Shown in pieces: positions 29,959 through 59,011 of a stretch of 64,000 nucleotides of DNA (positions are counted from its first letter, which is position 1; each line of letters opens with the position of its first letter). The position numbers and the translations under genes are program-made. Source of the DNA: Pyrinomonadaceae bacterium (GTDB taxonomy: Bacteria; Acidobacteriota; Blastocatellia; Pyrinomonadales; Pyrinomonadaceae); NCBI GenBank assembly GCA_035491875.1, contig DATJKB010000744.1, positions 919 to 64,918 of the forward strand, given 5' to 3'. The notes under the pieces were generated by a model that worked only from the letters and a program-made list of their open reading frames with translations, made no database searches and had not been told where the DNA came from.

Positions 29959-30031
29959 TTGCGATAGCAGGAGTCGAACCTGCGACCTCAAGATTATAAG
30001 TCTTGCGCTCTGCCAGTTGAGCTATGTCGCG
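29959..30031 (-). tRNA. tRNA with anticodon UAU (Ile, AUA), class I
   Basis: Fold: D arm GCTC-AACTGGCA-GAGC, anticodon arm CAAGA-CTTATAA-TCTTG (anticodon 29998..29996), variable AGGTC, T arm GCAGG-TTCGACT-CCTGC. Acceptor CGCGACA/TATCGCA has two C-A mismatches (1-72 and 6-67). A73. No encoded CCA. Confidence 0.7.
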
Positions 30032-30274: not shown

Positions 30275-31006
30275 CTAGCCTAACACGTATTCAAATAACG
30301 TGTCAGCGATCTTTTGCCTCGGAGCTTCGACCTCGTTGGCCTTGCCGCGTGCTAACTTGACCGCGCTAAGCAGTTCCTCAATCTTCGTAATCAGTTCCTC
30401 TTTCTGCGGCACGGGAAGCGCCGCCGACAGCTTAGTCTGGTCCCAGTAGCCGACTGTTACGTCTTTAGTTAGTTGGGCCACCTGAGCCGGGTGTTCCTTC
30501 GTCGCTTCTGAGACAGTCTTAAAGTCAACTATCTTCTCGGTACGGTGGCGAGTTGTAATATCCGTACGCCACTGTCCGGTTGATGGGTCTACTTTCCACT
30601 CCTCGGATTCGTCCAACGTAGGCAGTTTCTCGACGTAGTTACGAAAGTGGTCCAACTGCTTGCTTAGGAATAGCAAATGAGTAACAGGTACCGCTATAAG
30701 AATCACCTGACCGTTAACTTCCACATCGGCCCGCGCTTCCATGTTGGCCCAGTCCTTCGTCGCAGTCAGGTCGATCAATTCAGTCTTGGCTTTGATGAAC
30801 TTGTCAATTTCTTTACGCGCGTCTAACTGTACTCGCTTATGTTCAGGAGGTAGCGGTTCACCGCCTTCGTCCTTTGGTCGATACGTGCGAGCTAGTCCGT
30901 TAAACGAATCGGGCTTTAACGCTTCCCGTTCCAGCATTGCGGTGACAGATCCTATCTTGTTCTTCGCGTCTTCTTCGATAGCGATGATTTGATGTAGTTT
31001 TGGCAT
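30275..31006 (-). CDS. Conserved hypothetical protein (243 aa)
   Basis: Track ORF 30275..31018 (TTG start). ATG 31006, behind GGAGAAGGA, is preferred. The protein is helical and charged. No motif assigned. Confidence 0.6.
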   Translation of the reverse strand: MPKLHQIIAIEEDAKNKIGSVTAMLEREALKPDSFNGLARTYRPKDEGGEPLPPEHKRVQLDARKEIDKFIKAKTELIDLTATKDWANMEARADVEVNGQVILIAVPVTHLLFLSKQLDHFRNYVEKLPTLDESEEWKVDPSTGQWRTDITTRHRTEKIVDFKTVSEATKEHPAQVAQLTKDVTVGYWDQTKLSAALPVPQKEELITKIEELLSAVKLARGKANEVEAPRQKIADTLFEYVLG

Positions 31007-31039
31007 TTCCTTCTCCAACGATTAAGATTTAGAAAAGGA

Positions 31040-32044: not shown

Positions 32045-32468
32045 AGAACTAAGTGGAAGAGAGCTTGAGCTTGAAGTAGCAAAGCGCGTCTTTAACTTTC
32101 GTTGGTTTCATTGCGAGGCAAATGAAGTCGAGCGTAACCAGTTTCTCTCACCGGGGACTGCGGAAGTATGGCGCGAACTGGGATGGGTCTTGACTGAAAT
32201 CGATGGAATGCAGGACGATCAGTTCAACGATGACATTCCGAAGTTTGCCAGATCCATTGAAGCTGCAATGCGGGTAGTTGAGAAGATGCGGGAACAGGGC
32301 TGGTCATTCGCCTGTACGTTGTACGAAGGAAAGTTGCCTTACGCATCATTCTGCAAGGGCACAGTGAAGTCGAGCAGGAATGCCGAGGCCGAGTCACTCG
32401 CGGAAGCAATCTGTCTCGCCGCTCTAGCCGCTATCGAATCTACGCATACAGCACCCGTCTCGGCCTGA
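32037..32468 (+). CDS. Phage ABA-sandwich-domain protein
   Basis: 143 aa. LSGRELELEVAKRVF..W near the N-terminus and SIEAAMRVVEKMREQGW...AESLAEAICLAALAAIE match the pattern of this phage family. The gene converges on the terminase gene end. Confidence 0.5.
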   Translation: MSEELSGRELELEVAKRVFNFRWFHCEANEVERNQFLSPGTAEVWRELGWVLTEIDGMQDDQFNDDIPKFARSIEAAMRVVEKMREQGWSFACTLYEGKLPYASFCKGTVKSSRNAEAESLAEAICLAALAAIESTHTAPVSA

Positions 32469-34839
32469 TGCTGGCTCCGTGCCATGCGAGGGCGAGGCTG
32501 ATGACGCAATTATGGACCACGATGCCATTCGCTATAAATGATCTATCTTCGGCAACTTGAAGATTATAGACCGTGCCTTCAAATTGCCGTTCGGCAATAG
32601 TCTCCACGGGAGAGCCGTAACTAACCGGAGAGAGCTTTCGGGAATGATTATTCTCGGAACCGTCTTCTTTTATCGTAACCCAATATTGAGGCTTAGTAGA
32701 CTTTTCGTAACGCCGCCGCTCATATTTTCTTACCGTTGCGTATAGCCCATTTGCGAGAGCTAGATCTCGCATTCCTAAAGCCAGTCGCGCACTTGTGGTC
32801 GCACCTATCGTGTAGCCGGGAGACTGAACCGTAACGCCGTTCGGTTGCGTTACGTGTGGAGGACGGTGCCAACCATCGCCAGCCAACCATTCATCTACCA
32901 CTGTTTTACCGTGAACTTGTAAACGGTGAAAGTAAGGCGGGAGCTGTTTCTCGCCGGAGGATGAATAACAGGTCTTCAGGGCATGCCATAATAGCTTACT
33001 GGAAAACGTTAAGGCCACGCAGTTACTTCGCGCCTTCTCCGCTCTATTAGAAATTCTCAGCAAGTTGAGATAGTAGCGAAAGTACTCAATCGAATGCACA
33101 TCTTTAACGTTAAATGCGAGGCTCATGGTCCAGCCCGAAGAATTGGAACAGTGACCATCGGCAAGAAAGCGCCCGAGCAAGCTTGCAAATCCTTCATCAA
33201 GTTGCAGTTCTCGCAACTTGATATTCACCGCGCATTTCCCATTGGTGTAAAACTCACGTTCTGTCAGTACATCGCCAACACGCAGTACTGGAGATTCAAC
33301 TACCGTTACCGCACGGTAAGATTTACGCCAGTCGCCCGGTAATACCCACTGCTCGCGTGTAAATGGACCAGAGACATCGCCGGTGTAGTCGCGGCAGACA
33401 GCCAATATTGGGTGATTGTGGCTCAGCGACAGTTCTAGCTGATTTCTAAATTTACAATCATAAAACAGGCCCGAGAAGGGCTTGGTAATCGCCCTCTCTA
33501 CGGGCATATAGCGACCGCGATGAGTAAGCACCTGATCACCGGGTTGGACTTCTTCAATTGGACGATAGCCAGTCAATGTTTTAATCAGCGTTCCCTGCGG
33601 CAAACAGTCATCGTGATAACCTTCCGGGCTCGAATATCTCAGCATCCCACTCGGCAATCTCTCAGCTTCATAGGCTTGCAATTCAGCAATCAGTACTGGG
33701 TTATCAATTATGCGCAAATCGCCTTTCTCCAACGCAAGCGCGAGCGAGTCTATCGCTTCAGCTTTAGACGCATTCGTGGTCGTAAATGGGTGGACGTTGT
33801 AGCCTTCACGCTGGAGTTGCTCAATCAGCGGAATGCCGATGGAGTTGTGCTCAGGGATGAGAGTCTTCGTCTTAAACTTCGTGGCGAGCGTGCGCAACCT
33901 CTCAATCTGCACGGTGTAGTCGATCTGATTGAAGCGATCCACGTAGACCAACTCCTTCGTCGTCACGTCAATTACACTCAGCACCGTGAAATCGTTATAC
34001 TTGCCCCAGTCGATTCCGATCAGGTAGTTATGTCCATCGAGGGCTGAGTCTTGAGCAGTGGCACAAGCTGATTCGAGCACTCGTCTAAACACTCCACCCG
34101 CGTCGTCGATGAACTCAGCCAGATACTCTTGTCGAAAGATGCGCTCCGGCAGTTCCAATCGCGCCGCTTCGATCTCTTTGTCGAGATCGGTGAGGGTAGT
34201 ATTGACCGACGACGGCATCTGCCACGAGCGCCATTCGTCTTTGAGTGGATCTTGTCCCCAGTTGTAGATCGTGCGGAAAAAGTTCGAGCCACGTGGAGTG
34301 GAGAGGAACCACGCATCACCTTGATAGTCAGTGAGAGTGGGTCGAATTGACGCTTGCCATGCATCTCCCAGATAACGCACGAGGGCTGCTTCGTCAACGA
34401 TCACCAGCTTGTACTTGCGACTTCTACCTGCGTCGGGATTGTCCAGCGACCAGCACTCCAGCACCCCTTTCGTCGAGAGTTCCAGTCGATGCTCCTGCGT
34501 GGATTTGTCCACTGTCACTGGAGCGAACACTCGTTGTAAGTCGCGCCAGCTATCTGCGAGAATCTTGTATGAGGGTGCGAACCACCCGACAGGCCAACCC
34601 GCCATGAGATAGTCGCCACTGACATCCTGACCGAATACTGACTTACCCGCGCGTCGGCCTAACGCAGCAACATTGAACCTGCGCGCTTCAGCTTTCATCT
34701 TCTTCTGCGCTTCGTGAAGAGCGGGACGAATCAACCCGCCGCCCTTGAGTCGCTGTCGCCGCGCATCCTCCAGCTTGTCCTCGATGGGCCAGAGGTGCTT
34801 GAGACGGAGGGATGGTGGGAGATTGAGATCGTCGCTCAT
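32440..34839 (-). CDS. terL: Terminase large subunit interrupted by an intein
   Basis: 799 aa. Walker A GRRAGKS and Walker B KLVIVDEA are present. The nuclease domain motifs run ...IGIDWGKYNDF... and end at GYHDD, where the intein begins. The C-extein resumes CVISLALAW. Confidence 0.9.
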   Translation of the reverse strand: MSDDLNLPPSLRLKHLWPIEDKLEDARRQRLKGGGLIRPALHEAQKKMKAEARRFNVAALGRRAGKSVFGQDVSGDYLMAGWPVGWFAPSYKILADSWRDLQRVFAPVTVDKSTQEHRLELSTKGVLECWSLDNPDAGRSRKYKLVIVDEAALVRYLGDAWQASIRPTLTDYQGDAWFLSTPRGSNFFRTIYNWGQDPLKDEWRSWQMPSSVNTTLTDLDKEIEAARLELPERIFRQEYLAEFIDDAGGVFRRVLESACATAQDSALDGHNYLIGIDWGKYNDFTVLSVIDVTTKELVYVDRFNQIDYTVQIERLRTLATKFKTKTLIPEHNSIGIPLIEQLQREGYNVHPFTTTNASKAEAIDSLALALEKGDLRIIDNPVLIAELQAYEAERLPSGMLRYSSPEGYHDDCLPQGTLIKTLTGYRPIEEVQPGDQVLTHRGRYMPVERAITKPFSGLFYDCKFRNQLELSLSHNHPILAVCRDYTGDVSGPFTREQWVLPGDWRKSYRAVTVVESPVLRVGDVLTEREFYTNGKCAVNIKLRELQLDEGFASLLGRFLADGHCSNSSGWTMSLAFNVKDVHSIEYFRYYLNLLRISNRAEKARSNCVALTFSSKLLWHALKTCYSSSGEKQLPPYFHRLQVHGKTVVDEWLAGDGWHRPPHVTQPNGVTVQSPGYTIGATTSARLALGMRDLALANGLYATVRKYERRRYEKSTKPQYWVTIKEDGSENNHSRKLSPVSYGSPVETIAERQFEGTVYNLQVAEDRSFIANGIVVHNCVISLALAWHGASIRPRRVLYA
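32509..33606 (-). mobile_element. Intein (366 aa) with LAGLIDADG-type homing endonuclease domain
   Basis: It starts CLPQGTLIKT at residue 412 (codon 33606..33604 is TGT). It ends ...ANGIVVHN (codon 32511..32509 is AAT), followed by Cys+1. Internal LLGRFLADGH and DEWLAGDGWH resemble the two LAGLIDADG motifs. Confidence 0.8.
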
Positions 34840-36948: not shown

Positions 36949-37136
36949 TCACTCCAGACGACGCTCTCAATCTCCTGCTCGACTACCCGACAATCATCCA
37001 TCTCGTGCTGGATGGGTACGAGCCGAGGTTGGCGAGCGTGCTCATTGAGATGTTTCGTGAGTTGGATGATGAGACGGCGAGGATGAGTGTGAAGTTGTGG
37101 GCACAGGCGGCGGAGAAAGAATGCAACAACAACTAA
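36945..37136 (+). CDS. Hypothetical protein (63 aa)
   Basis: ATG 36945 has an ATGA overlap with the previous stop. Confidence 0.4.
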   Translation: MITPDDALNLLLDYPTIIHLVLDGYEPRLASVLIEMFRELDDETARMSVKLWAQAAEKECNNN

Positions 37137-37339
37137 CAACTGACACACCAACTGAAACAGGCTGGTATCCTACTTATTCTACATGGGACGAGAACGAAGG
37201 CATGTTTCCCGGCGCGCATTACTGGAACGGATCAGAATGGGAACCCATAACGACAGCATCGATCACACGCTGGTCCGTAAAATTCGATACGGAACACGAG
37301 GCGCGAATACATGCGGATCAATACGATCCCGAGCGATAG
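37121..37339 (+). CDS. Hypothetical protein (72 aa)
   Basis: ATG 37121 is preceded by GGAGAAAGA. Confidence 0.4.
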   Translation: MQQQLTTDTPTETGWYPTYSTWDENEGMFPGAHYWNGSEWEPITTASITRWSVKFDTEHEARIHADQYDPER

Positions 37340-37356
37340 CAGTGAGGAGCACGCAA

Positions 37357-37740
37357 TTGAACGAAACAGCACACGGCAAGTTGGATAAGGTCAACACTCG
37401 GTTATGTCGAGAGCGGTTATCCGTGTCCTCGTATCTGCAAGCTCTTTATCCTAACTTCAGCTTCTGTGGTCGCTGCGAGTTTCCGTGGCCCGTGGTTCGG
37501 TCGCATGACACGTCATACAGATCGGGTAGTTCATGCTTCCCGCTTTGCGAAGACTGCTGGCAGGAGTTAGGGACGCCCGCAAATCGACTCCCTTACTACA
37601 TGGCACTGATGGACCTATGGGAGAGCGAAGCGCACAGGCTGGATCTTGAGTCCGAACTGGCCGAGTTGCCGCAACGTCGTGAACTGGTTCGGCGAGCGGT
37701 GCTGGAAGAGGGACGGGAACCGGGAGAGGCGAGGAATTGA
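37357..37740 (+). CDS. Cys-rich hypothetical protein (127 aa)
   Basis: TTG 37357 is preceded by GAGGAG. Motifs: FCGRCEFPW and CFPLCEDCW. The start is uncertain. Confidence 0.4.
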   Translation: MNETAHGKLDKVNTRLCRERLSVSSYLQALYPNFSFCGRCEFPWPVVRSHDTSYRSGSSCFPLCEDCWQELGTPANRLPYYMALMDLWESEAHRLDLESELAELPQRRELVRRAVLEEGREPGEARN

Positions 37741-37741
37741 G

Positions 37742-37987
37742 ATGATCGATCACGACGACAACTGCGGCGGCTGTCGCGTCAACCAACGAATGCATAAGCA
37801 TGGCGGTTGCTTCGTCACGAGCGATCTAGCTTACTGTAGGCGTTGTGGTCCAACACGTAACTCAAGCTCATACCTGCATCAAGTTCAAGGGAAGTCCTAC
37901 TGCGCCTCCTGTGCTGACATCATGGCGCAAGCTCACGCCGAGAGCTTCTACGTGGCGGGGATGTATGGCGTGATGCCGAGTTTGTAG
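37742..37987 (+). CDS. Cys-rich hypothetical protein (81 aa)
   Basis: ATG 37742. Three CxxC pairs: CGGC, CRRC and CASC. Confidence 0.45.
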   Translation: MIDHDDNCGGCRVNQRMHKHGGCFVTSDLAYCRRCGPTRNSSSYLHQVQGKSYCASCADIMAQAHAESFYVAGMYGVMPSL

Positions 37988-38021
37988 CTTAGGTAAATTC
38001 AACGCCCGAAAGGTAACTCAC

Positions 38022-38372
38022 ATGTTCAATGAATGGATTCCGTTACGCGGTAGCAACCCGCCCAAGGATACGCCGCTACTGACCGCGGATCGCTACGGGA
38101 ATATCTGTAGCGCCAGAATGTTGGGTAATGTCTGGATTGGCACAAAACTGGGACGAGAACCTACGCATTGGGCGCTCTTACCCCCGCCGCCAGAGCAGCC
38201 CTCCGGCGAGTCCCTGTTCGAGCCCGGTCACTGCAATATGTGCGGTGCTACTGAATCTTTATCGATAATTCAGGTCGTTTCTACCGGAGTTATCCGCACG
38301 GTATGTGAGTACTGCCGGGGACCGCGGAATAACAATAACTACCGCGAATGGCTGGGCGACCAGAAAGACTGA
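38022..38372 (+). CDS. DUF551-like protein
   Basis: Motif: NEWIPLRGSNPPKDTPLL...VWIG...EPTHWALLPPPPE, matching the W...P...vl...THW.pLP.pP pattern. Confidence 0.5.
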   Translation: MFNEWIPLRGSNPPKDTPLLTADRYGNICSARMLGNVWIGTKLGREPTHWALLPPPPEQPSGESLFEPGHCNMCGATESLSIIQVVSTGVIRTVCEYCRGPRNNNNYREWLGDQKD

Positions 38373-38373
38373 T

Positions 38374-38736
38374 ATGAAGCTACATGAAATCGACTCTACT
38401 AAACGCTACGTGCTGGCGATCGAGTGCGCTGACATCGCCACAGAAGATCTCAGTCGAATGCAGGAGCGACTCCAGGAGCGTGGACTGTACAATATCACTA
38501 TCGTCGCAGGGCCAGTCTCCATGTCGGAACCATTGCGCTACTGGGGCATCTGGGTAAGTCCGCCGAATCAGCAGCCGGGCTGGGCACGTAACGGCAGTGG
38601 CGACTTTCTCTACTACCCAAGTCCAGTGCTGGCTGAAGCGCGTCGAACAGATCTAGGCTGGGAGCACTGCGAGGTGAAGGAGTTCACGCTCGGTGATACA
38701 CTGCGGGATGTGGAGGATTGCCTTCGGAAAGGCTAA
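38374..38736 (+). CDS. Hypothetical protein (120 aa)
   Basis: ATG 38374 lies 2 nt after the previous stop. Confidence 0.45.
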   Translation: MKLHEIDSTKRYVLAIECADIATEDLSRMQERLQERGLYNITIVAGPVSMSEPLRYWGIWVSPPNQQPGWARNGSGDFLYYPSPVLAEARRTDLGWEHCEVKEFTLGDTLRDVEDCLRKG

Positions 38737-38742
38737 ATCGCG

Positions 38743-39351
38743 ATGACATGGCTCGACAACGAGGGACAGGTCAGACCGCAATCATGGGAGGAGTATTGCG
38801 AGATCGAAGCAGGTAAGCGCCGCCTGCCGGAATGGATGATTCCGAGTCGTAACTATCTGCCGCAACCATTACACCCGCCTCCACGTCGCATCGCAAAAGA
38901 AGAATCGCGCGAGAAGATCTTAAAGATGCGACTGCGGCTATTTCACGCTGATCCGCATTGCTTCTGGTGCGGACAAAAAACTCTCTACGGCGCAGTGGGA
39001 AATCCCTTACAAACTACCGTAGACCATCTTTATTCACGTCTCCACCCTGAAAGAGCGAATCGCTATCGGGAACAGAAAGGCGTGCTGCACGTATTAGCTT
39101 GTTCAGTTTGTAACAATGAGCGCGGAGTCTGCGAACAGCAACAGCGACCCTTTATTCCAAAACTGGCAGAGCGGCTGTCTTTCGCTCGGCAGGCAGATGC
39201 AACGCTGGCAGGTGGAGGTGGTACTAGTCCATCGCAGACTAACTCCCTGCAAGGGATTGCGTCGGAGGAGCCATCCCGATTGCCGCCGATGCGAGTAATC
39301 CAAACACTGGAAGAAGCTATCGAGTACGCACGGAATAATCCGTCGAGATGA
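38743..39351 (+). CDS. HNH endonuclease
   Basis: Motif CFWCGQKT...TVDHLYSRLHPER...VLACSVCNNERG (C..C...DH...C..CN). Confidence 0.7.
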   Translation: MTWLDNEGQVRPQSWEEYCEIEAGKRRLPEWMIPSRNYLPQPLHPPPRRIAKEESREKILKMRLRLFHADPHCFWCGQKTLYGAVGNPLQTTVDHLYSRLHPERANRYREQKGVLHVLACSVCNNERGVCEQQQRPFIPKLAERLSFARQADATLAGGGGTSPSQTNSLQGIASEEPSRLPPMRVIQTLEEAIEYARNNPSR

Positions 39352-39448
39352 GCAGGTAACAAGATGTTGTATAAGTCGAGAAGGGGAAAATTTACACGAG
39401 GGTGTGACCCCACCCCTCCAGCTCCCCCAACACTTTTAGATTTGAGGT

Positions 39449-39745
39449 GTGAGAGTGATGATGATGATGATCGATTCAGACGATGATAACGACGACGACA
39501 ATCGACTACGCCACGTGAGCAGGTACGGGCGCAGTCAGAGACATGATCGCGGGACGGTGAAAGGTGATAATGATCGTAAAACTACCGCAGTCTTCGCCGG
39601 GGGATTTGCTTTTATGATGCTTCTACTGGCGTTGTCAGTTGCGGCGCGTAGTGGTTGGCCCAGTGTTGCGATACTACCTACAATACTAATACCCCCTATC
39701 TCGTTTGGGTTAATGTATTTCTTTTTGCGATGGCTGGATCTATGA
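39449..39745 (+). CDS. Membrane protein with Asp-rich N-terminus and two TM helices (98 aa)
   Basis: Track ORF. The start is uncertain. Confidence 0.4.
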   Translation: MRVMMMMIDSDDDNDDDNRLRHVSRYGRSQRHDRGTVKGDNDRKTTAVFAGGFAFMMLLLALSVAARSGWPSVAILPTILIPPISFGLMYFFLRWLDL

Positions 39746-39831
39746 CAGCCTAGAACCACGTGGCCCAACGATGACAGTGACGACTATACGCAGTTGTGAG
39801 TAGTGGTCTAAGTGGGTTGTTGAGGGATTAC

Positions 39832-39920
39832 GCTGGCGTAGCACAATGGCAGTGCGGCGGACTTATAATCCGTAAGCCCCGGATTAGGGCGTGATGAAGG
39901 TTCGAGTCCTTCCGCCAGCA
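39832..39920 (+). tRNA. Class II (long variable arm) tRNA with anticodon UAU
   Basis: Fold: acceptor GCTGGCG/CGCCAGC 7/7, D arm GCAC-AATGGCA-GTGC, anticodon arm GCGGA-CTTATAA-TCCGT (anticodon 39864..39866), T arm GAAGG-TTCGAGT-CCTTC. The variable region is 22 nt with a GCCC/GGGC stem. A73. No encoded CCA. Confidence 0.75.
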
Positions 39921-39958
39921 TTAGTTGTGGTCTATGTCTGCTACTGAGAGTAGGGCGG

Positions 39959-40072
39959 TTAATAACGAGGGCGCGAGTTCTGGTACACACGGTAAGCCAA
40001 CCATGCTACGCCACCTACTCCTCCAGCGTATATAGCACACAGGAAAATCAGCGCAAATAAGCTCGAATTCAT
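39959..40072 (-). CDS. Possible 37-aa single-TM peptide
   Basis: Hand-found: MNSSLFALIFLCAIYAGGVGGVAWLAYRVYQNSRPRY. It lies 15 nt downstream of the HTH gene. It is very short, so the call is weak. Confidence 0.2.
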   Translation of the reverse strand: MNSSLFALIFLCAIYAGGVGGVAWLAYRVYQNSRPRY

Positions 40073-40087
40073 ATTGCTTCTGCTCCG

Positions 40088-40612
40088 TTACGAAGGATTG
40101 AGCGCGTCTTCATCGACTACTTCCCCTTGTGCCGACAACTCCTCGCTACTACCACTGGTTGCGCTAACATCAATCGCCGGACTCAACTGCCGCTGCTCAC
40201 TCTCTCCCACTTGCACACTATGCTCTCCTGTGAGTAGTTCAGCTAACTTACTCAGATCAATCTTCGCTCCGTCTGTTTCACTTTGCGCATACTTCAACCA
40301 GTCTAGTGGATCTTTCTCAGTACAAAGGACGCCGTTCTCATCCATCAGCGAACGAATGACCCGCATTACATGACGCATGCGTTCGGCACGTGAGGAAACG
40401 TCCAGCATTACAGATAACCGATCTACTTCCAGGCAAAATTCAGGATCGTCTAACCAGTTGTAAATAGTTGCCCGGCAAACCCCTACGTCATCCGCGACAT
40501 ACTGCTTATTATAGCCTAAAGCCAGTAAAGACGCGGCTCTGGAGCGAGTCTTATCCCAGACGATTTTCTGTTGCTGATGACGCGTGTAATCGGAAACGTA
40601 AGAAGTACTCAT
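40088..40612 (-). CDS. HTH DNA-binding protein (terminase-small-subunit-like N-terminus)
   Basis: 174 aa. LLALGYNKQYVADDVGVCRATIYNWLDDPEF resembles the HTH of small terminase or regulator proteins. The C-terminus is acidic. Confidence 0.45.
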   Translation of the reverse strand: MSTSYVSDYTRHQQQKIVWDKTRSRAASLLALGYNKQYVADDVGVCRATIYNWLDDPEFCLEVDRLSVMLDVSSRAERMRHVMRVIRSLMDENGVLCTEKDPLDWLKYAQSETDGAKIDLSKLAELLTGEHSVQVGESEQRQLSPAIDVSATSGSSEELSAQGEVVDEDALNPS

Positions 40613-40642
40613 CGCAACAAGAGTTTACACAACTTTGTTTCA

Positions 40643-40879
40643 TTAGACTAGAGGTAGCGTTAATCGCGGGTTAAACAGGTGGATTCCCGCTAGTGTTGTT
40701 ATTGTTTGGTAGGGTTTAACAATCCGACAGGCTGGCATTGGAACGGTGTACCCTTTACGTGAAGTCGAGCACTCCGTACACAAGGGACAATGACGTTGAT
40801 CGCAACGTGGATTGCGACACTTCAGGCAGCCGTGACGGCGTACCTGTTTGAGTTTCGGATGATGACGATCTGTGATCAC
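40643..40879 (-). CDS. Cys/Arg/His-rich hypothetical protein (78 aa)
   Basis: Track ORF. Its composition is unusual, so the region could instead be non-coding. Confidence 0.3.
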   Translation of the reverse strand: MITDRHHPKLKQVRRHGCLKCRNPRCDQRHCPLCTECSTSRKGYTVPMPACRIVKPYQTITTLAGIHLFNPRLTLPLV

Positions 40880-40888
40880 TAGTAGTCC

Positions 40889-41089
40889 TCAGTAGTCAAC
40901 CCCCATCCGCGCAGTTGTCTCAGTCGTCTCAGGTCGTTCTTCCGTAGTCGCATCAGTCGCAATTATCACGGTAACGACTGTCAGCAGCACCGCCCAGAAC
41001 GAGAATATCACCTGCGGCATAATAGACTGGGAGCGGATTACGCCAACGAGAGCTGTAACCGCCAAAAGAAAGGTAACGAAAGAGATCAC
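40889..41089 (-). CDS. Two-TM membrane protein (66 aa)
   Basis: Track ORF with a GTG start. Confidence 0.4.
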   Translation of the reverse strand: MISFVTFLLAVTALVGVIRSQSIMPQVIFSFWAVLLTVVTVIIATDATTEERPETTETTARMGVDY

Positions 41090-41238
41090 TGATAGATCCT
41101 CCCTGCTCGCTCAATCCGCCCACTCGTCTCCTCACTTACCCTCGTCAACCACGATTGCAACCCGTAGTAGACACCGAAAGAGAGCGCGAGGATGAGGAGA
41201 ATGGTTAGGGTGTAGTCGGATAAGGTTAGACGTTGCAT
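41086..41238 (-). CDS. Single-TM membrane protein (50 aa)
   Basis: Hand-found: MQRLTLSDYTLTILLILALSFGVYYGLQSWLTRVSEETSGRIERAGRIYQ. It has a GTGA overlap downstream. Confidence 0.35.
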   Translation of the reverse strand: MQRLTLSDYTLTILLILALSFGVYYGLQSWLTRVSEETSGRIERAGRIYQ

Positions 41239-41444
41239 GGGGTTAGATCCTTTGTTGTCGTGATTTCGGATTCCATTTGCATCGCTAAGGCTGACCGCGA
41301 CTCAACCAATGTGAACTCATTGCCACATACGCCGCAGTATCGTACACCGCGCCTCTCCGTCCTCGACTGCGATGAATGAATCCGGCAAGTAGGGCAATAG
41401 GCCGACTCTCTTGCTGGTAGCTTGTTACCTTGTTTCGTACTCAT
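41226..41444 (-). CDS. Zinc-ribbon protein (72 aa)
   Basis: Motif: CPTCR...CGVCG. Confidence 0.4.
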   Translation of the reverse strand: MSTKQGNKLPARESAYCPTCRIHSSQSRTERRGVRYCGVCGNEFTLVESRSALAMQMESEITTTKDLTPCNV

Positions 41445-41459
41445 GTTCTCTCACTCGCA

Positions 41460-41657
41460 TCAACTCAACTCCGCGTTGGTGGTGGTTGCACGCACCTGTA
41501 ACCGATCACCGTCAATGCGTGTAGTCACTAATCCCTTACATTGCAAGGCTAGTACCTCGCCGAGATAATGACGATGATGATCCAGCCACTGATCAGGTCT
41601 TGAGCGCGCGGTCCTGAGAATCATTGTTTCAATCGCTGTCATCTTCGTCTCACTCAT
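41460..41657 (-). CDS. Hypothetical protein (65 aa)
   Basis: Track ORF. Confidence 0.4.
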   Translation of the reverse strand: MSETKMTAIETMILRTARSRPDQWLDHHRHYLGEVLALQCKGLVTTRIDGDRLQVRATTTNAELS

Positions 41658-41680
41658 ACTCCCTCCCGTGGGTTGGTTGG

Positions 41681-41866
41681 TTAGTCGCAGGATTGCAGTC
41701 TATTGCTTCCCTGCGCCTTTATAAAAGCCGTCACTTTTGACTTGTGCCAAGTCTCGCCGCCGTCAAAGGAATAATACTTCACGTTCCAACTAAACTTGAC
41801 TTCGAGCCAGTACCAAATTCCGGTTGGCCTGTGAATCACTCGCTTCATAATCGCCGTTGCGCCCAT
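41681..41866 (-). CDS. Hypothetical protein (61 aa)
   Basis: Track ORF. Confidence 0.4.
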   Translation of the reverse strand: MGATAIMKRVIHRPTGIWYWLEVKFSWNVKYYSFDGGETWHKSKVTAFIKAQGSNRLQSCD

Positions 41867-41983
41867 TCCCTCACCCCTTTCGCTTCGGTCTGCGCGCGAG
41901 TCGTGCTAATCCATTCCAGTAACAAAACCAGCACAATCCCTGCGCGTAATTCAGTGCTCGTTCAAGTTTACAGTGTTTGCACA

Positions 41984-42145
41984 TTACTTAACCTTCCCTT
42001 CAATCCTATCCAACTCAGCCTTGACCGCTTCCCGCACCACCCATGAAGGCGGGCGGTCGATCTGTTTCGCTACCCGCTTAAGTCGTCGGATTAAAGCCTC
42101 TTCCACGCGGGCGAATAACATTTTGTCTTTAGTGGTTGTCGCCAT
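41984..42145 (-). CDS. Ribbon-helix-helix (CopG/Arc-like) regulator (53 aa)
   Basis: Hand translation: MATTTKDKMLFARVEEALIRRLKRVAKQIDRPPSWVVREAVKAELDRIEGKVK. This shows a beta strand followed by two helices. It is divergent from the early promoter. Confidence 0.55.
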   Translation of the reverse strand: MATTTKDKMLFARVEEALIRRLKRVAKQIDRPPSWVVREAVKAELDRIEGKVK

Positions 42146-42155
42146 GTCGAAGGAC

Positions 42156-42184
42156 AGACTACACTAGCCGTCAATCTATGTCAA
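42156..42184 (-). promoter_or_regulatory. Sigma70-type promoter TTGACA-N17-TAGTCT for the RHH operon
   Basis: On the minus strand: -35 at 42184..42179 and -10 at 42161..42156. The -10 ends 11 nt before ATG 42145, so the leader is about 4 nt or less. Confidence 0.45.
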
Positions 42185-42231
42185 GCATTTATTCGCGGTC
42201 AATTTGAACAATGAAATAATTGAGATTGTGC

Positions 42232-42260
42232 TTGACAACGCTAGACAATGATAGTAGAGT
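42232..42260 (+). promoter_or_regulatory. Sigma70-type promoter TTGACA-N17-TAGAGT (early plus-strand block)
   Basis: -35 at 42232..42237 and -10 at 42255..42260. Confidence 0.55.
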
Positions 42261-42283
42261 GCTTCTTACGGAGACAAACTAAA

Positions 42284-42517
42284 ATGATTACCTATCACTA
42301 CAACGGCAAGCGAGTTGATCTGAAACTTAACGGCGAAGATAACCCGTCATGCCCGAACTGCAATCGATACAACGCCATGCTGTTTGAGCGTATGTGTAAC
42401 GGGCCATCCGATGATTACGTTCTTAAGTGCCGCGATTGTGGTGCTGAGGTAATTGTAATAACAAGAGAGGTTGAAATCGAAGTCGAGCCAGACTTAGAAC
42501 AGTTACGACAGGAATGA
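42284..42517 (+). CDS. Zinc-ribbon protein (77 aa)
   Basis: Internal ATG of track ORF 42248..42517, downstream of the promoter, with GGAG upstream. Motifs: CPNCN...CRDCG. Confidence 0.5.
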   Translation: MITYHYNGKRVDLKLNGEDNPSCPNCNRYNAMLFERMCNGPSDDYVLKCRDCGAEVIVITREVEIEVEPDLEQLRQE

Positions 42518-42551
42518 AGACGGTCCCAAGGACGGCTACAGTGTCAGATAC

Positions 42552-42713
42552 GTGCGAGCGGACAATTACGCACAGCTCGTCGCGGCACTGCGAGACGAAC
42601 TTGAGGCAATCCGCCTCTGGCAATCAGCGCGGAATGTTCCGGCTGACGTTCGTGACGGATTGCAAATCAGCACGGAGAAGATTCGCCAAGTACTCAGCCG
42701 CGTGCGGGGGTAG
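42552..42713 (+). CDS. Possible 53-aa helical protein (GTG start)
   Basis: The third frame reads VRADNYAQLVAALRDELEAIRLWQSARNVPADVRDGLQISTEKIRQVLSRVRG. This is far more protein-like than the two track ORFs covering the region. The Shine-Dalgarno signal is weak. Confidence 0.3.
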   Translation: MRADNYAQLVAALRDELEAIRLWQSARNVPADVRDGLQISTEKIRQVLSRVRG

Positions 42714-42737
42714 GGAATGATGACGTTGAAATATTCG

Positions 42738-42766
42738 TTGACAACGGAAGTGACGCCTGATACTCT
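42738..42766 (+). promoter_or_regulatory. Sigma70-type promoter TTGACA-N17-TACTCT
   Basis: -35 at 42738..42743 and -10 at 42761..42766. Confidence 0.4.
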
Positions 42767-42808
42767 GTCGCACGGCAGAAAACCGTAGCAACGGAAAGTT
42801 GAGCGAGT

Positions 42809-42982
42809 ATGAGCCGTTACAAAAGGAAACCGGAACGTAAGACTAGATGCGAAAGTTGTAAGACGCCGCTGACCACTACCCGCAAACTGCAACGGTTCTG
42901 TTCGGACATTTGCAGGTGGCGAGCATGGGATCGCGAACATCCGAGACAAAACATTCAACGAAAGGCAGAATCAAATGCATAA
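42809..42982 (+). CDS. Small zinc-finger protein (57 aa, C..C...FCS..C type)
   Basis: Hand translation: MSRYKRKPERKTRCESCKTPLTTTRKLQRFCSDICRWRAWDREHPRQNIQRKAESNA. Confidence 0.45.
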   Translation: MSRYKRKPERKTRCESCKTPLTTTRKLQRFCSDICRWRAWDREHPRQNIQRKAESNA

Positions 42983-43670
42983 CCGTAAGAACTTCGCAAT
43001 CGGCTCATTGGTAGCCAAATCAGAAGATACCCGTTTCAGTCTGGCAACTGTTCAGATCCATCGGGATAAAACCGTGGCCTGTGACGGGCACGTGCTCGCG
43101 CTCGTGTCGAACACTGAAACCGAGAACGAGAATTTTCCACTCATTGACAACGTTACGCCACTTGCTGAGTTTGAACCATTTCTGATTCCTGCCGCACAAG
43201 CCGCTGCCATCGTTAAGGCGATTCCGAATGAACGCCAACTGCCAGCATTGAACCATGCACTTATCGGCGTCAACGGTGACGGGCAGTCGAAAGTTATCGC
43301 TACTACCGACCTTGAGACTAAGACGGTATTCAAGGTTGACGAGTCGCCACAGCCACCCTCGAAACAGTTTCCAAAGTGGGAGAAAGCTATCCCTGACGGC
43401 GAGCCCGTGGCAGTAGCAACACTCGATTTGAATCTATTACTGCCAGCATTGAAAGCAATGGCTGCGTTCGGGCCGGATAGAACCAAATCCGTCACGATGC
43501 GCGTGTATAAGTCTGAACACGACAAGCCAGATCGTTCTTTCACTCCTGTACGGTTTGACGCGCGGAACTGGGATACAGGGCAGCACATGACCGTTGTGGC
43601 AATGCCGATGAATGACGTAATCGAGGCGAAGGACTGGACGACCGCATCGGAAAAGGAGTCGCATGACTGA
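42975..43670 (+). CDS. Sliding-clamp (DnaN)-like protein, short form
   Basis: 231 aa. VACDGHVLALVS resembles the clamp motif ATDGHRLA. KQFPKWEKAIPDG resembles the FPdy..viP motif. Confidence 0.45.
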   Translation: MHNRKNFAIGSLVAKSEDTRFSLATVQIHRDKTVACDGHVLALVSNTETENENFPLIDNVTPLAEFEPFLIPAAQAAAIVKAIPNERQLPALNHALIGVNGDGQSKVIATTDLETKTVFKVDESPQPPSKQFPKWEKAIPDGEPVAVATLDLNLLLPALKAMAAFGPDRTKSVTMRVYKSEHDKPDRSFTPVRFDARNWDTGQHMTVVAMPMNDVIEAKDWTTASEKESHD

Positions 43671-56335: not shown

Positions 56336-59011
56336 ATGCCCATTCCTCTTCCATCACATTGCAAATCGTGCGTTCTCTATCCCGAGCATCGAGCAGGGTT
56401 GGGATTCTCGAATCTCGAAGGCTCAGGGACGAATGGCGTTCTGGTCGTCGCCGAAGCATTGGGAGAATACGAGGAGATTGATGGCCTACCCTTGCGTCCC
56501 ATGGCCCCGGCAGGCTCGGTCTTCCAGAAGTCGCTGAGATGGCAAGGACTGGATCGATCGGAGTTCACTTTGACGAATATCGTCAGATGTCGTCCTCCGA
56601 AGAACTGGTTAGATGGTGCTCCTTTCGAGAGAGAAGCGATTGATCATTGCCGTACCTACCTAGACGCGGTAATCAAAGAGCGCAAGCCGAAGTGCATTTT
56701 AGCTTTGGGGGGGATTGCGCTCAGAGAATTAACTGGGTTGAGTGGGGAGAAGAGGACGATCTCGCACTTGAGGGGATTCGTGCTGAATTCTCGCTATGAC
56801 ATCCCGCTCGTAGCAACTTATCATCCGTCGTTCATCGTGCGTGGAGCATCGCACTTACTTGGAGTCGTGATTCGTGACGTGAAATTAGCAACTCGCGTGG
56901 CTGCGACTGGGATTCCTGTTGAGCAAGTTGACTATCAGCTCAGCCCGACTCCGAACGAGGTTCGTCAGTGGTTCAACTCACTATTGCCGTCAGATCCAAT
57001 CTCACTCGACATCGAAACTGACATGTTCGAGAAAGACGATGTTGATTTTGCGTCAAACGCGAAGATCACTCAGATTCAATTCTCAGCGAAATCTGGAACA
57101 GCGATCGTCTTACCCTACATCTCCACCTACTTCGACGTGATTGGTGAAGTTCTTGCGTCAGCAAATCCGAAGTGGACGTGGAACGGCAGAATGTTCGACG
57201 TGCCAATTCTCAGAGCTGCTGGATTCGAGGTCAATGGAGAGCATCACGATTTGATGCTTGCATGGAGACATCTCCAGCCTGACTTCGATGCAGAATCGAG
57301 GTTGATGTCGTTGCAGAGTTGTACGTCATTCTATGCTCCATTCTTTAGACCGTGGAAACACGAGTCATCGATCGATCTGCCCCTCTATGGGGCAAAGGAC
57401 GCGGATTCGACATTCAGGTGTGGATCTGGACTCATGTCCGACTTGCAGAAGCGCGGGCTCTGGAGAGGATATTACGAGCACAAATTCAGATTGAAAGACG
57501 TGCTTGATGATCTGGGCAAGCGAGGACTGCCTGTGGATGCGCAGGGACAGGCTGAGTTTAGACTGGAAGTGATGACTGAGTCCGAGAAGTTGAGTAGTGA
57601 GTTGCAGCAACACATTCCATCTCAGTTGCTCGATCTGCACCCGAAACAAGGCTACAAAGTCATTCCGAAGCCGATCAAAGAATTAGTTGCGTCCTGCATA
57701 GGCCAGCCGATCGAGCAGATCGTTGCAAGGGTCAGGTCTGAGTTGAACTATGACTATCGAACGTTCGGCGTCAATGGCGACTCAGTTGAGAGATGGTGCA
57801 AAGCTCTGCCATTCAATCCCAACTCCTCGCAGCAACTTCTCCGCTATATCAAGCACATGAATTACAAAGTCCCCAAGAAATGGGGCGAGGACAAAGAGAC
57901 GACGGGGAAGGATGCGTTGGAGAAACTCTTTCACCAGACCGGGGATCGCGTCATTGGACTGGTGCGTGAAGTCCGCAAGATGAACAAATTAGTCTCAGCA
58001 TTTACGACAGGCAACTGGCGTCCTGCTGACGACGGCAGAGTTCATCCTACTTTCCTATTTGGGACTGCGACTGGTCAATTGAGTTGCCAGCGTCCCAACA
58101 TTCAGCAATTCCCCGTGCATGGAGATCTCGCGTGCAAATTCAAACGCATGATTCGCGCAGAATCCGGTCATACATTTATCTCACTCGACTTCAGATCGTT
58201 CCATGCTCGATCACTTGGATGGATCTCGCTCGACGAGGATTACTACAAACTCGCCGACTTCGACGTTCATTCATTTGTCACTGCTCATTTCGTGCGTCTG
58301 CCTGAAGCAGAACATTTGTTGTCATTACCTGATGAGCAGCTTAGATCTGCCCTGAGCAAAGTCAAATCTCAGTACAAGGACATTCGAGATCAGAAAGCCA
58401 AACGCGCGATCCTCGGACTCGGATTTCACATGGGAGTAAACAAGCTCTACATGATGAATGCGGACAGCTTTAATCCAACTCTTGACGAGGTTAAGTTGCT
58501 CGCGGGCAAAGGATGGAATTCGTGGAACGACGAGCGCCGACAGAAGTATGTCAACAAGTTCGGACTGGCAGAGGCGAAGAAGTTAGTCGCACTCATTCAA
58601 CGACTCTTTCCGAGAGCATTCTCTGACTTTCCACGAGACATCGAGGATCGAATTAGACGAGTGACGAAGTGCTATTTGAAGTCGCCAGCGGGATCGAATA
58701 GATGGTTTTGGGATCTCAACTTGGAAGAAGCAGTAGCGTTTCTCCCGGCGAACATCGCTCATGCTCATATTGACGATGTAGCACTAAGACTCAATGATCA
58801 GGGATTGCTCGACAAGTTTCAGCTCGTCAACTGGATTCACGATTCACTGCTATTCCATTGTCCAACTGATCTAGTTGATGAATGCACCTCGATCGTGCAG
58901 CGAGAGATGTCACTGCCGTCTGAGATTTGCGAGAACGAACTGGGCAAATTTCAATGCAACGTCGATGCGAAAGTAGGAGTTAGCTTAGCTGAAATGAAGG
59001 AAGTGAAATGA
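56336..59011 (+). CDS. DNA polymerase, family A, with N-terminal family-4 UDG-like domain and 3'-5' exonuclease domain
   Basis: 891 aa. UDG-like motifs: CKSC..., AEALGEYEEIDGLPLRPMAPAGSVF, and ATYHPSF. Exonuclease I motif: SLDIETD. Polymerase motifs: TATGQLSCQRPNIQQFP, motif A SLDFRSFHARS, motif B RDQKAKRAILGLGFHMG, motif C NWIHDSLLF. Confidence 0.9.
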   Translation: MPIPLPSHCKSCVLYPEHRAGLGFSNLEGSGTNGVLVVAEALGEYEEIDGLPLRPMAPAGSVFQKSLRWQGLDRSEFTLTNIVRCRPPKNWLDGAPFEREAIDHCRTYLDAVIKERKPKCILALGGIALRELTGLSGEKRTISHLRGFVLNSRYDIPLVATYHPSFIVRGASHLLGVVIRDVKLATRVAATGIPVEQVDYQLSPTPNEVRQWFNSLLPSDPISLDIETDMFEKDDVDFASNAKITQIQFSAKSGTAIVLPYISTYFDVIGEVLASANPKWTWNGRMFDVPILRAAGFEVNGEHHDLMLAWRHLQPDFDAESRLMSLQSCTSFYAPFFRPWKHESSIDLPLYGAKDADSTFRCGSGLMSDLQKRGLWRGYYEHKFRLKDVLDDLGKRGLPVDAQGQAEFRLEVMTESEKLSSELQQHIPSQLLDLHPKQGYKVIPKPIKELVASCIGQPIEQIVARVRSELNYDYRTFGVNGDSVERWCKALPFNPNSSQQLLRYIKHMNYKVPKKWGEDKETTGKDALEKLFHQTGDRVIGLVREVRKMNKLVSAFTTGNWRPADDGRVHPTFLFGTATGQLSCQRPNIQQFPVHGDLACKFKRMIRAESGHTFISLDFRSFHARSLGWISLDEDYYKLADFDVHSFVTAHFVRLPEAEHLLSLPDEQLRSALSKVKSQYKDIRDQKAKRAILGLGFHMGVNKLYMMNADSFNPTLDEVKLLAGKGWNSWNDERRQKYVNKFGLAEAKKLVALIQRLFPRAFSDFPRDIEDRIRRVTKCYLKSPAGSNRWFWDLNLEEAVAFLPANIAHAHIDDVALRLNDQGLLDKFQLVNWIHDSLLFHCPTDLVDECTSIVQREMSLPSEICENELGKFQCNVDAKVGVSLAEMKEVK

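Follow-up and report, generated by a model that had tools for sequence, protein, structure and literature searches.

The locus and its tRNA

The stretch of DNA analysed here (the window) comprises 64,000 nucleotides (nt) of a contig assigned to a Pyrinomonadaceae bacterium (GenBank assembly GCA_035491875.1, contig DATJKB010000744.1, positions 919 to 64,918). At 39832..39920, on the plus strand, it carries a transfer RNA (tRNA) gene of 89 nt that combines the anticodon UAU with a second hairpin between the anticodon arm and the T arm. The subject of this report is that tRNA and the family to which it belongs, which we call the GAU-arm family after the G-A-U in the loop of the second hairpin. 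ARAGORN reports the gene as tRNA-Ile, anticodon tat (UAU). The Rfam model RF00005 matches it over model positions 1-71 with 67.7 bits (E 1.4e-12; gathering threshold 29) and places 19-20 extra bases as an insertion in the variable region. RNAfold gives the proposed cloverleaf of five helices as the minimum-free-energy (MFE) structure (-36 kcal/mol, z = -2.8), and none of 200 shuffled sequences folds as well. The tRNA is real and well-formed. Its parts are as follows, with H1 denoting the anticodon arm and H2 the second hairpin; linkers of UA, G and AA separate acceptor stem from D arm, D arm from H1, and H1 from H2.

39832..39920 (+), the whole tRNA, long-armed, anticodon UAU; type A within the GAU-arm family (ARAGORN; Rfam 67.7 bits; MFE cloverleaf; 100 bits to the family model R1, partly by construction, as the window tRNA is one of the 16 R1 seeds)
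39832..39838 (+), 5' strand of the acceptor stem, GCUGGCG, all 7 pairs formed with 39913..39919 (helix 1: 99.7% paired, both-side changes at all 7 pairs among 50 relatives)
39841..39855 (+), D arm, class I-like; 7-nt loop AAUGGCA on the 4-bp stem GCAC/GUGC; A14, A15, G18 and G19 present (sequence, fold, covariation)
39857..39873 (+), H1, the decoding anticodon arm, GCGGA-CUUAUAA-UCCGU, with canonical U33, A37 and A38 (ARAGORN, fold; U33-U34-A35-U36-A37 invariant in 50 of 50 relatives, in part imposed by the search patterns)
39864..39866 (+), UAU anticodon for the codon AUA (ARAGORN position 33)
39876..39890 (+), H2, the "variable arm", GCCC-CGGAUUA-GGGC, similar to the anticodon arm of tRNA-Ile(GAU) (fold; helix 4 98.5% paired; middle pair covaries as GC, AU, CG, UA and UG)
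39882..39884 (+), G-A-U, loop positions 3-5 of H2, hallmark of the family and a putative pseudo-anticodon for Ile (invariant in 50 of 50 aligned type A members, again partly through the search patterns)
39891..39895 (+), 5-nt connector GUGAU from H2 to the T stem, of class I variable-loop length; its final U can pair with A15 (sequence)
39896..39912 (+), T arm, GAAGG-UUCGAGU-CCUUC (sequence, fold, covariation)
39913..39920 (+), 3' strand of the acceptor stem, CGCCAGC, and discriminator A73 (sequence, fold)

A preliminary description, made from the letters of the DNA alone, had already recognised a well-formed 89-nt long-arm tRNA with anticodon UAU, a 7/7 acceptor stem and A73, and ARAGORN, Rfam and RNAfold agree with it. 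The 22 nt that it placed between the anticodon and T arms, with a 4-bp GCCC/GGGC stem and a 7-nt loop, likewise appear in the MFE structure. It had further stated that no stem contains a mismatch; this holds, with the qualification that the anticodon stem GCGGA/UCCGU includes one G27.U43 wobble among otherwise standard pairs. CCA is not encoded, A73 being followed by TTA. A scan of the flanks of the gene for promoters and terminators gave no signal over shuffle expectation.

Whether this tRNA belongs to class II depends on which features are compared. By the common definition, i.e., more than 10 nt with a stem-loop, its variable region of 22 nt with a 4-bp stem is that of class II. The class II core, however, has a 3-bp D stem, an enlarged D loop, an arm loop of 3-5 nt and few unpaired bases 3' of the arm, and ordinary class II tRNAs have just 1-3 nt between the arm and the T stem. 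In the window tRNA the D stem has 4 bp, the D loop 7 nt and the arm loop 7 nt, and 5 unpaired nt lie 3' of the arm.

Known identity elements were compared in the same manner. The serine set, G73 with a long arm, is contradicted by A73, and the bacterial tyrosine set, G34/U35 with A73, by the anticodon UAU. Bacterial tRNA-Leu is identified by A73, by tertiary elements (A15:U48 and others) and by a large variable region (PMC9976931); the window tRNA has A73, A15 and a terminal connector U, and its D loop is minimal. As for isoleucine, A73 and the bacterial tRNA-Ile motif N34-A35-U36-A37-A38 are present, with N34 being U, a poor determinant for isoleucyl-tRNA synthetase (IleRS) of the E. coli type. 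The minor E. coli determinants C4:G69, U12:A23 and C29:G41 are replaced by G4:C69, A12:U23 and, in H1, G29:C41. We know of no bacterial Leu, Ser or Tyr system that requires a GAU loop with C:G pairs like those of tRNA-Ile.

A widespread family of UAU tRNAs with a GAU arm

Relatives of this tRNA were collected with sequence patterns. The first pattern asked for no more than a T arm separated by a long gap from a UAU anticodon arm; it returned long UAU tRNAs on four viral contigs, and in three of these the extra arm resembles that of the window. Three scans of viral contigs, each with at least 120 matches, used the anticodon loop plus the arm motif, the 3' half of the arm plus the T arm (anticodon-blind), and a pattern blind to the arm; a further scan covered one genome per bacterial or archaeal species and gave at least 119 loci. 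Loci are numbered with the prefix L. Among the matches listed for the anticodon-blind scan, 137 of about 175 fall inside a long UAU tRNA, and thus the arm motif belongs to UAU tRNAs.

The viral contigs yielded at least 175 distinct long UAU tRNAs, at least 160 of which have G-A-U at positions 3-5 of a 7-nt hairpin loop. Invariance of this triplet in the aligned members is partly imposed by the search patterns, and the arm-blind scan therefore gives the fair estimate: GAU lies at the loop centre in 83 of the 95 long UAU tRNAs, among the matches listed, that fit the arm-blind pattern, and in 27 of the 38 loci unique to that scan, a subset biased against the commonest loop, which carries GAUU. 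Bacterial genomes and metagenome-assembled genomes (MAGs) contributed at least 67 further members, chiefly from Acidobacteriota, where more than 30 Pyrinomonadaceae species are carriers, along with Blastocatellia, Terriglobia and Bryobacterales. Other carriers include Rhodobacter, Cereibacter, Acidithiobacillus, Pseudoxanthomonas, Aggregatibacter and further genera. Two cultured phages, Aeromonas phage 1233 and Synechococcus phage S-SRM01, each have a family tRNA that is unannotated in GenBank. The family exists, and it is large, widespread and conserved. The window tRNA shows all four family features, namely the UAU loop, a second hairpin with a 7-nt GAU loop closed by C:G, a connector of 5-6 nt, and a 7/5 branch.

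Most members sit in densely packed tRNA arrays, the largest with 38 genes in 8 kb. In the arrays listed that contain a long UAU tRNA, a tRNA(GAU) stands alongside in 59 of 84 viral and 25 of 31 genomic cases, and a short UAU tRNA was found alongside in none of these 84 viral and 31 genomic arrays. That is, the long UAU tRNA occupies the AUA slot of the arrays. Among 231 loci searched for a conserved neighbouring protein gene that might encode a dedicated partner enzyme, no protein cluster occurred in more than about 10%, the most frequent ones being generic T4-like auxiliary genes.

Two further observations concern distribution. Type B-like members (see below) occur as lone tRNA genes in alphaproteobacterial chromosomes, in Rhodobacter capsulatus SP36 (L368) and in Cereibacter (L342, L398). 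In many Pyrinomonadaceae species, the gene directly upstream of the long UAU tRNA is a class I tRNA(GAU) that has C33 in place of U33, with the loop UCGAUAA or CCGAUAA:

L319, 6268..6341, class I tRNA(GAU) with C33
L323, 212..285, the same
L345, 976..1047, the same
L380, 36..109, the same
L381, 7331..7404, the same

The second hairpin resembles the anticodon arm of tRNA-Ile(GAU)

In the 160 members listed, H2 consists of a stem of 4-5 bp and a 7-nt loop with the consensus Y-N-G-A-U-N-R. The pair closing the loop, equivalent to C31:G39 of an anticodon arm, is C:G in 147 of 160; the third pair, equivalent to C29:G41, is C:G in 144 of 160 (90%). The second pair, equivalent to N30:N40, varies between G:C (83), A:U (28), U:A (24), C:G (16) and U:G (9). 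The connector that follows has 5 nt in 133 members and 6 nt in 24. For comparison, the verified anticodon arm of E. coli tRNA-Ile(GAU) reads CACCC-CUGAUAA-GGGUG, and H2 of the window tRNA reads GCCC-CGGAUUA-GGGC. The exact canonical loop CUGAUAA is found in H2 of two members (L001, L275). Identity elements of E. coli tRNA-Ile include C29:G41, G34, A35, U36, N6-threonylcarbamoyladenosine at position 37 (t6A37), A38 and A73 (PMC9976931). In our set of about 2,400 phage tRNAs, C29:G41 is commonest in tRNA-Ile(GAU), at 48% against 10% in all others combined.

The same sequence pools contain class I tRNA(GAU) genes whose own anticodon arm is of the H2 type, CGC-CCGAUUA-GCG, with C33 and U37; these class I genes with the CCGAUUA loop may be related or ancestral to the GAU arm:

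L152, 12129..12203, class I tRNA(GAU) with H2-type arm
L185, 1946..2021, the same
L222, 4921..4994, the same
L400, 7190..7264, the same

A GAU arm was found on no long tRNA of any other anticodon among those examined. Long arms do occur in phage arrays on tRNA-Asn, Thr, Pro, Lys, Trp, Gln and Met (L001 2259..2346; L029, L045, L077, L092, L148, L212 and others), mostly with short loops of the GAAA/GNRA type. Thus, H2 has the dimensions and the sequence of a tRNA-Ile(GAU) anticodon arm, is conserved, and is specific to UAU tRNAs. The preliminary description had presumed that long arms in bacteria are confined to Leu, Ser, Tyr and Sec tRNAs; this is contradicted by the array tRNAs for Asn, Thr, Pro, Lys, Trp and Gln, as well as by the published allo-tRNAs (PMC5389517).

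Conversely, arrays in which the AUA tRNA is long-armed contain tRNA-Leu genes of class I length (77 nt) with a short variable loop:

L320, 3217..3459, short-armed tRNA-Leu
L001, 3984..4060, the same
L003, 7514..7852, the same

Body types, covariation and internal organisation

The same two arms are found on two types of tRNA body. In type A, to which the window tRNA belongs, U8-N9 is normal, the D stem has 4 bp, the D loop 7-8 nt and the anticodon stem 5 bp. In type B, as in Sec tRNAs and allo-tRNAs, the connector is a single nucleotide, the D loop a tetraloop and the anticodon stem 7 bp long; the branch is still 7/5. At its gathering threshold RF00005 misses type B members, yet ARAGORN calls them (L233 3000..3089, L342, L317, L014). 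Model R1 also matches every ordinary tRNA at 35-55 bits and cannot separate type B, for which a custom parser was used. A73 is present in 124 of 139 parsed relatives (about 90%), CCA is encoded in about 80%, and G1.U72 occurs in about 60%.

Covariation was assessed in 50 type A members from phages and genomes. Standard pairs fill 98.9% of the pair cells, and both partners have changed in 23 of 24 pairs; covariation scores 0.92, as compared with 0.22 for shuffles and at most 0.16 for slid registers. All five type A helices are therefore supported, with structure far beyond chance. Beyond the universal tRNA positions, the invariant ones are U33-U34-A35-U36-A37 of H1 and G-A-U of H2. When H2 was deleted in silico, ARAGORN still reported tRNA-Ile(tat) for 155 of 160 members.

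A class I origin was sought through the nearest neighbour of each tRNA after deletion of H1 or H2, and the result was scattered anticodons at low scores, except that the D and T arms of the window tRNA recur in an acidobacterial tRNA(GAU) (L381). Two other ideas were set aside. Pairing of GAUUA with UAAUC of H1, or with the T loop, can be drawn for the window tRNA and fails across the family. That the extra 22 nt are a short intron is unlikely, as no bulge-helix-bulge motif is visible and a covarying, conserved hairpin argues for a retained element; we know of no bacterial splicing machinery for so short an element.

Long-arm UAU tRNAs that lack GAU (L264, L280, L281, L312; L279, L284; L002) are heterogeneous. 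They include a group that combines a long D stem with a GAAA tetraloop, a pair with the arm loops CUAACAA and CUAGCAA, and a single tRNA with G73 and a GGCA loop, which may be Ser-like.

The meaning of AUA in the carrier phages

The preliminary description had suggested above all that a class II body could be charged here by SerRS, LeuRS or TyrRS, such that AUA would be recoded. To examine the meaning of AUA, open reading frames from the first 231 viral loci, from the Aeromonas phage locus L232 and from the window (233 sequences in all) were compared all against all, and for each codon we tallied the residues of homologues from other loci, ignoring AUA codons of the homologues. At 2,025 AUA positions the homologous residue is Ile in 33%, Leu in 18%, Val in 18%, Ser in 2% and Tyr in 2%. 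The AUU and AUC codons (5,182 and 3,025 positions) give 47-49% Ile, 12-13% Leu and 17% Val, and the Leu codons (1,144-2,961 positions per codon) give 57-61% Leu and 8% Ile. In columns where at least 80% of the homologues agree, AUA corresponds to Ile in 59%, to Leu in 23% and to Val in 6% (n=141); the figures for AUU/AUC are 74% Ile and 8% Leu, and Leu codons correspond to Leu in 89%. About 20% of the aligned Ile codons in carrier contigs are AUA.

AUA is a rare codon within the window (111 of 18,970), with none in the capsid, portal and major tail genes. Two of the three AUA codons of the terminase fall in columns that are 76-78% Ile: among 120 homologues, residue 363 is aligned with 91 I and 29 V, and residue 377 with 93 I and 21 L. 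The third, near the intein, is aligned with Leu in 36 of 40 homologues. On the strength of these alignments, AUA behaves as an isoleucine codon in the carrier phages, and recoding of AUA is not supported.

Charging by SerRS or TyrRS, with AUA read as Ser or Tyr, is effectively refuted by these codon alignments, in which each of the two residues accounts for 2%, and it retains next to no probability. The long arm is its one point in favour; A73 stands in place of G73, G34/U35 is lacking, and the geometry of the arm, with 5 unpaired nt on its 3' side and a 7-nt loop, is unlike that of tRNA-Ser or tRNA-Tyr.

Charging by LeuRS, which would act through A73, the large variable region and A15:U48 so that AUA is read partly or wholly as Leu during infection, calls for closer scrutiny. 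A73 in about 90% of members and the listed Leu identity elements (A73, tertiary interactions, large variable region) are compatible with it, and nematode nev-tRNA-Ile(UAU) is reported to be leucylated in vitro (PMC4300185). In addition, AUA falls on Leu-conserved columns in 23% of cases, as compared with 6-9% for AUU/AUC, in a comparison among the viral carrier loci L001-L231; this also counts against the isoleucine reading developed below. The sites concerned number 33 for AUA, against 52 for AUU and 24 for AUC, and the potential one-step donors UUA+CUA, CUU and CUC make up 33%, 27% and 8% of Leu codons, respectively. At the Leu-column AUA sites the donor codons UUA/CUA are enriched to 50%. 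Because the sites are scattered, the counts fit the mutational input and UUA/CUA are enriched, we attribute the raised Leu share of AUA to its rarity among Ile codons and not to decoding as Leu. Most AUA codons lie in Ile columns (59%, where Leu codons reach 89% L in their own). Moreover, the D arm is class I-like, tRNA-Leu in the arrays is often short-armed, such that a long arm is no mark of Leu there, and the GAU would go unexplained. We thus consider charging by LeuRS quite unlikely. Recoding in a subset of the phages was considered separately and rejected: the Leu-column AUA sites are spread over loci that hold Ile-column sites as well.

The leading proposal of the preliminary description is therefore not supported: the body is not class II-like, the extra arm has a conserved, Ile-like sequence of its own, and AUA aligns with Ile. 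Its fallback, a highly unusual tRNA-Ile, agrees with these findings.

A possible separation of identity from decoding

AUA is the one sense codon decoded by special chemistry in all three domains of life, namely lysidine, agmatidine, or inosine/pseudouridine. An ordinary bacterial IleRS would be expected to need G34 or lysidine-34 and to handle U34 poorly. The relative kcat/Km of E. coli IleRS is 360-fold lower for the anticodon UAU than for LAU, where L is lysidine, and Trp905, the residue responsible, is conserved in species that have tilS (PMC3575796); recognition of G34 is essential in both bacterial types of IleRS (bioRxiv 10.64898/2026.02.03.703510). TilS would be of no help to a UAU tRNA because the anticodon begins with U, and a phage or a mobile array presumably could not alter the IleRS of its host.

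We tentatively propose, with slightly less than even confidence, that the long-arm tRNA is a working elongator tRNA that serves the phage as an Ile-charged decoder of AUA, its GAU arm supplying IleRS with a determinant of the G34 type. H2 would be the identity arm, offering G34'-A35'-U36', C:G pairs equivalent to 29:41 and 31:39 and, in most cases, R38'; H1 would be the decoding arm, whose canonical loop CUUAUAA would pair with AUA on the ribosome. H1 joins the D stem through one nucleotide, and H2 joins the T arm through a 5-nt connector of class I length, such that each would possess one canonical junction. Either hairpin could then stack on the D stem, IleRS and the ribosome each selecting a different arrangement. 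Three steps here are inferred, namely that IleRS charges the tRNA, that it recognises H2, and that the helices stack in alternative ways. That the GAU arm provides the missing IleRS determinants would be the most economical explanation, because the GAU is invariant, the hairpin has the size of an anticodon arm, and the arm occurs on UAU tRNAs only. The more general formulation is one that we hold with greater reserve: this could be a tRNA that separates identity, read by IleRS from the GAU arm, from decoding, performed on the ribosome by the UAU arm, which would allow phages, mobile tRNA arrays and Acidobacteriota to read AUA as Ile without TilS and lysidine or a change in IleRS, perhaps by means of a junction of five helices with two ways of stacking.

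Besides the excess of AUA at Leu-conserved columns, several points weigh against this proposal. The tip of a variable arm lies far from the anticodon-binding site of IleRS in the standard L-shape, and the proposal consequently needs alternative stacking or a new contact. H2 lacks U33, having mostly A, and usually lacks A37, and indeed R37, although t6A37 is a determinant for bacterial IleRS (PMC9976931). When H1 was deleted in silico, ARAGORN called tRNA-Ile(gat) in only 29 of 160 members; that is, H2 does not fit as a canonical anticodon arm. About 13% of the long-arm UAU tRNAs among the matches listed have GAAA or other loops in place of GAU, and since class I UAU tRNAs exist in phages, the window phage included, the extra arm is not obligatory. 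Lastly, six CUA variants of allo-tRNA(UAU) were inactive in E. coli (PMC5389517). This inactivity would be expected if Ile identity or folding requires the native anticodon and arms, and is equally compatible with tRNAs that have no role in translation.

Three other explanations bear on the function of the arm. In the first, the tRNA is an Ile-charged AUA decoder whose real UAU is read by IleRS, and the GAU arm has another job, e.g., recruiting or blocking an enzyme that modifies U34 or A37, limiting misreading of AUG, defending against anticodon nucleases or other tRNA-targeting systems, or stabilising an unusual core. This would accord with the behaviour of AUA as Ile and with the canonical arm H1. 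The long UAU tRNAs without GAU, and the long arms with GNRA loops on tRNAs of other specificity, suggest that the arm as such may be structural or defensive, and tRNA arrays are discussed in the literature as elements of anti-defence or stress response (PMC12803027, PMC8421152). The invariant G-A-U, the C:G pairs of the Ile type, the anticodon-arm size and the restriction to UAU would be left unexplained, however; a dedicated partner is not apparent among the neighbouring genes, and the weakness of IleRS for U34 would remain. We regard this explanation as unlikely, if still a serious contender.

In the second, the tRNA is a non-translational decoy or regulator that titrates, e.g., IleRS or a toxin, as has been suggested for allo-tRNA(UAU) near toxin-antitoxin genes. 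The six inactive CUA variants, two of which were toxic (PMC5389517), agree with this idea, as do irregular tRNAs in acidobacterial arrays, such as GAU tRNAs with C33. Set against it are the features of translation that the family has kept, i.e., the 7/5 branch, G18G19, the T loop, A73, encoded CCA in about 80%, and the U33/A37 loop. In addition, the long UAU tRNA fills the AUA slot in otherwise complete arrays, and AUA is no negligible codon at about 20% of aligned Ile codons. A decoy role therefore seems very unlikely to us.

In the third, the tRNA would be two-headed, with the GAU arm decoding AUU/AUC and the UAU arm decoding AUA through alternative stacking. H2 does have the size of an anticodon arm and a connector of class I length, and class I tRNAs with the same CCGAUUA loop exist. 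Given that H2 lacks U33 and usually R37, and that most arrays contain a separate tRNA(GAU), such decoding is extremely improbable, and to our knowledge it has no precedent.

For the proposal of an IleRS identity arm, the consequences would be considerable. Should the GAU arm prove to be an identity element for IleRS, this would uncouple tRNA identity and anticodon in a new way, would account for the inactivity of allo-tRNA(UAU) after a change of anticodon, and would offer a design principle for codon reassignment with unmodified synthetases. Even if the identity-arm step proves wrong, a UAU tRNA with a distinctive arm exists in hundreds of phage contigs and many Acidobacteriota, largely missed by annotation; AUA recoding is removed as a false lead; and the family can be tested in cultured phages, namely Synechococcus phage S-SRM01 and Aeromonas phage 1233.

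Relation to known systems

Bacterial tRNA-Ile(UAU) is treated as a rare exception (bioRxiv 10.64898/2026.02.03.703510). The closest published set is the allo-tRNA(UAU) group (Mukai et al. 2017, NAR 45:2776, PMC5389517), which combines a long extra arm with UAU in the same way as the GAU-arm family; the GAU-arm family, too, is concentrated in Acidobacteriota. Type B members share with allo-tRNAs and Sec-like tRNAs a D arm made of a 4-bp stem and a tetraloop, together with a long anticodon stem. Allo-tRNAs are defined by an 8/4 or 9/3 branch and mostly G73 or U73, in contrast to 7/5 and A73 in the window tRNA and its relatives, and their Sec-like D arm and lengthened anticodon stem differ from the 7-nt D loop and 5-bp anticodon stem of the window tRNA. 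In that paper they are interpreted as having Ser identity or a non-translational role, and the main text (PMC5389517) contains no mention of a GAU loop or of likeness to Ile. The GAU-arm family probably overlaps the published allo-tRNA(UAU) set. Long-arm UAU tRNAs are already known as a kind, and what would be new, if confirmed, is the separate identity arm.

Eukaryotic nev-tRNA-Ile(UAU) (Hamashima et al.; PMC4300185) also unites a long arm with an AUA anticodon and raises the same question of identity versus decoding. According to that report, its arm is of the Leu type, it is leucylated in vitro and no GAU pseudo-anticodon is reported; the codon evidence from the window set points to Ile instead. 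Mycoplasma mobile tRNA-Ile2(UAU) (Taniguchi et al. 2013, PMC3575796) is a bacterial U34 decoder of AUA that is likewise independent of TilS. It is a class I tRNA, and the solution lies on the side of the enzyme, in that Arg865 of IleRS accepts U34 (PMC3575796), whereas the GAU arm would be a solution on the side of the tRNA, for use with an ordinary IleRS. Canonical tRNA-Ile2, in which TilS converts CAU to a lysidine-bearing anticodon, serves the same codon and amino acid, and in E. coli has G27.U43 and A31:U39 like H1 of the window tRNA. In that tRNA, lysidine is needed both for recognition by IleRS and for pairing with AUA, and there is no extra arm.

Anticodon-arm mimicry is known from messenger RNAs. 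The E. coli thrS operator and the yeast AspRS mRNA contain hairpins that imitate an anticodon arm and are read by the cognate synthetase under its identity rules (PMC9976931). Those mimics regulate translation, whereas the GAU arm would sit inside a tRNA and serve aminoacylation. As to genomic context, tRNA array units and L-arrays have been described (PMC4758250, PMC8421152); relatives of the window tRNA occur in arrays of 12-38 genes in phages, MAGs and Acidithiobacillus, in contrast to the two tRNA genes of the window phage. The tRNA-array papers and reviews on non-canonical tRNAs that we checked mention neither a GAU arm nor a 7/5 long-arm tRNA-Ile(UAU), and literature searches for a long-arm phage tRNA-Ile(UAU) or for a second anticodon-like arm returned no description.

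The second UAU tRNA and the window phage

The preliminary description had placed a second, class I, tRNA with anticodon UAU at 29959..30031. It exists there, and we correct the account in that the gene is on the minus strand and its acceptor stem contains two C.A mismatches:

29959..30031 (-), class I tRNA with anticodon UAU at 29996..29998 (ARAGORN; Rfam 66.4 bits); outside the GAU-arm family, with 39.3 bits to R1

The mismatches are C1.A72 and C6.A67, and the gene does not encode CCA. The two tRNA genes, 10 kb apart, are the only ones in the window phage. To have both a short and a long UAU tRNA is unusual, the short form being present in 0 of the 84 viral arrays listed with the long form.

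The remainder of the window is that of a tailed phage, with genes for an intein-bearing terminase, portal, major capsid protein, tape measure protein, D5-like primase-helicase and PolA. No tRNA-related domain was detected in the genes adjoining the long-arm tRNA. A megablast search with 37000-43000 against GenBank phages gave no match, i.e., there is no close cultured relative. The named homologues of the terminase are from Acidobacteriia and Solibacter MAGs, and the closest relative of the window tRNA among the matches listed, the independent L320 (90% identity), is part of an array of 25 tRNA genes in a Blastocatellia MAG. The terminase homologues and the L320 tRNA locus point to an acidobacterial host.

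Three protein genes deserve mention:

32440..34839 (-), terminase large subunit, split by an intein (Hint_2 and Intein_splicing matches); most homologues have about 450 amino acids and span only about half of this query
56336..59011 (+), family A DNA polymerase with a domain of the uracil-DNA-glycosylase superfamily at its N-terminus
30275..31018 (-), DUF7873 protein (292 bits), directly upstream of the class I UAU tRNA and on the same strand

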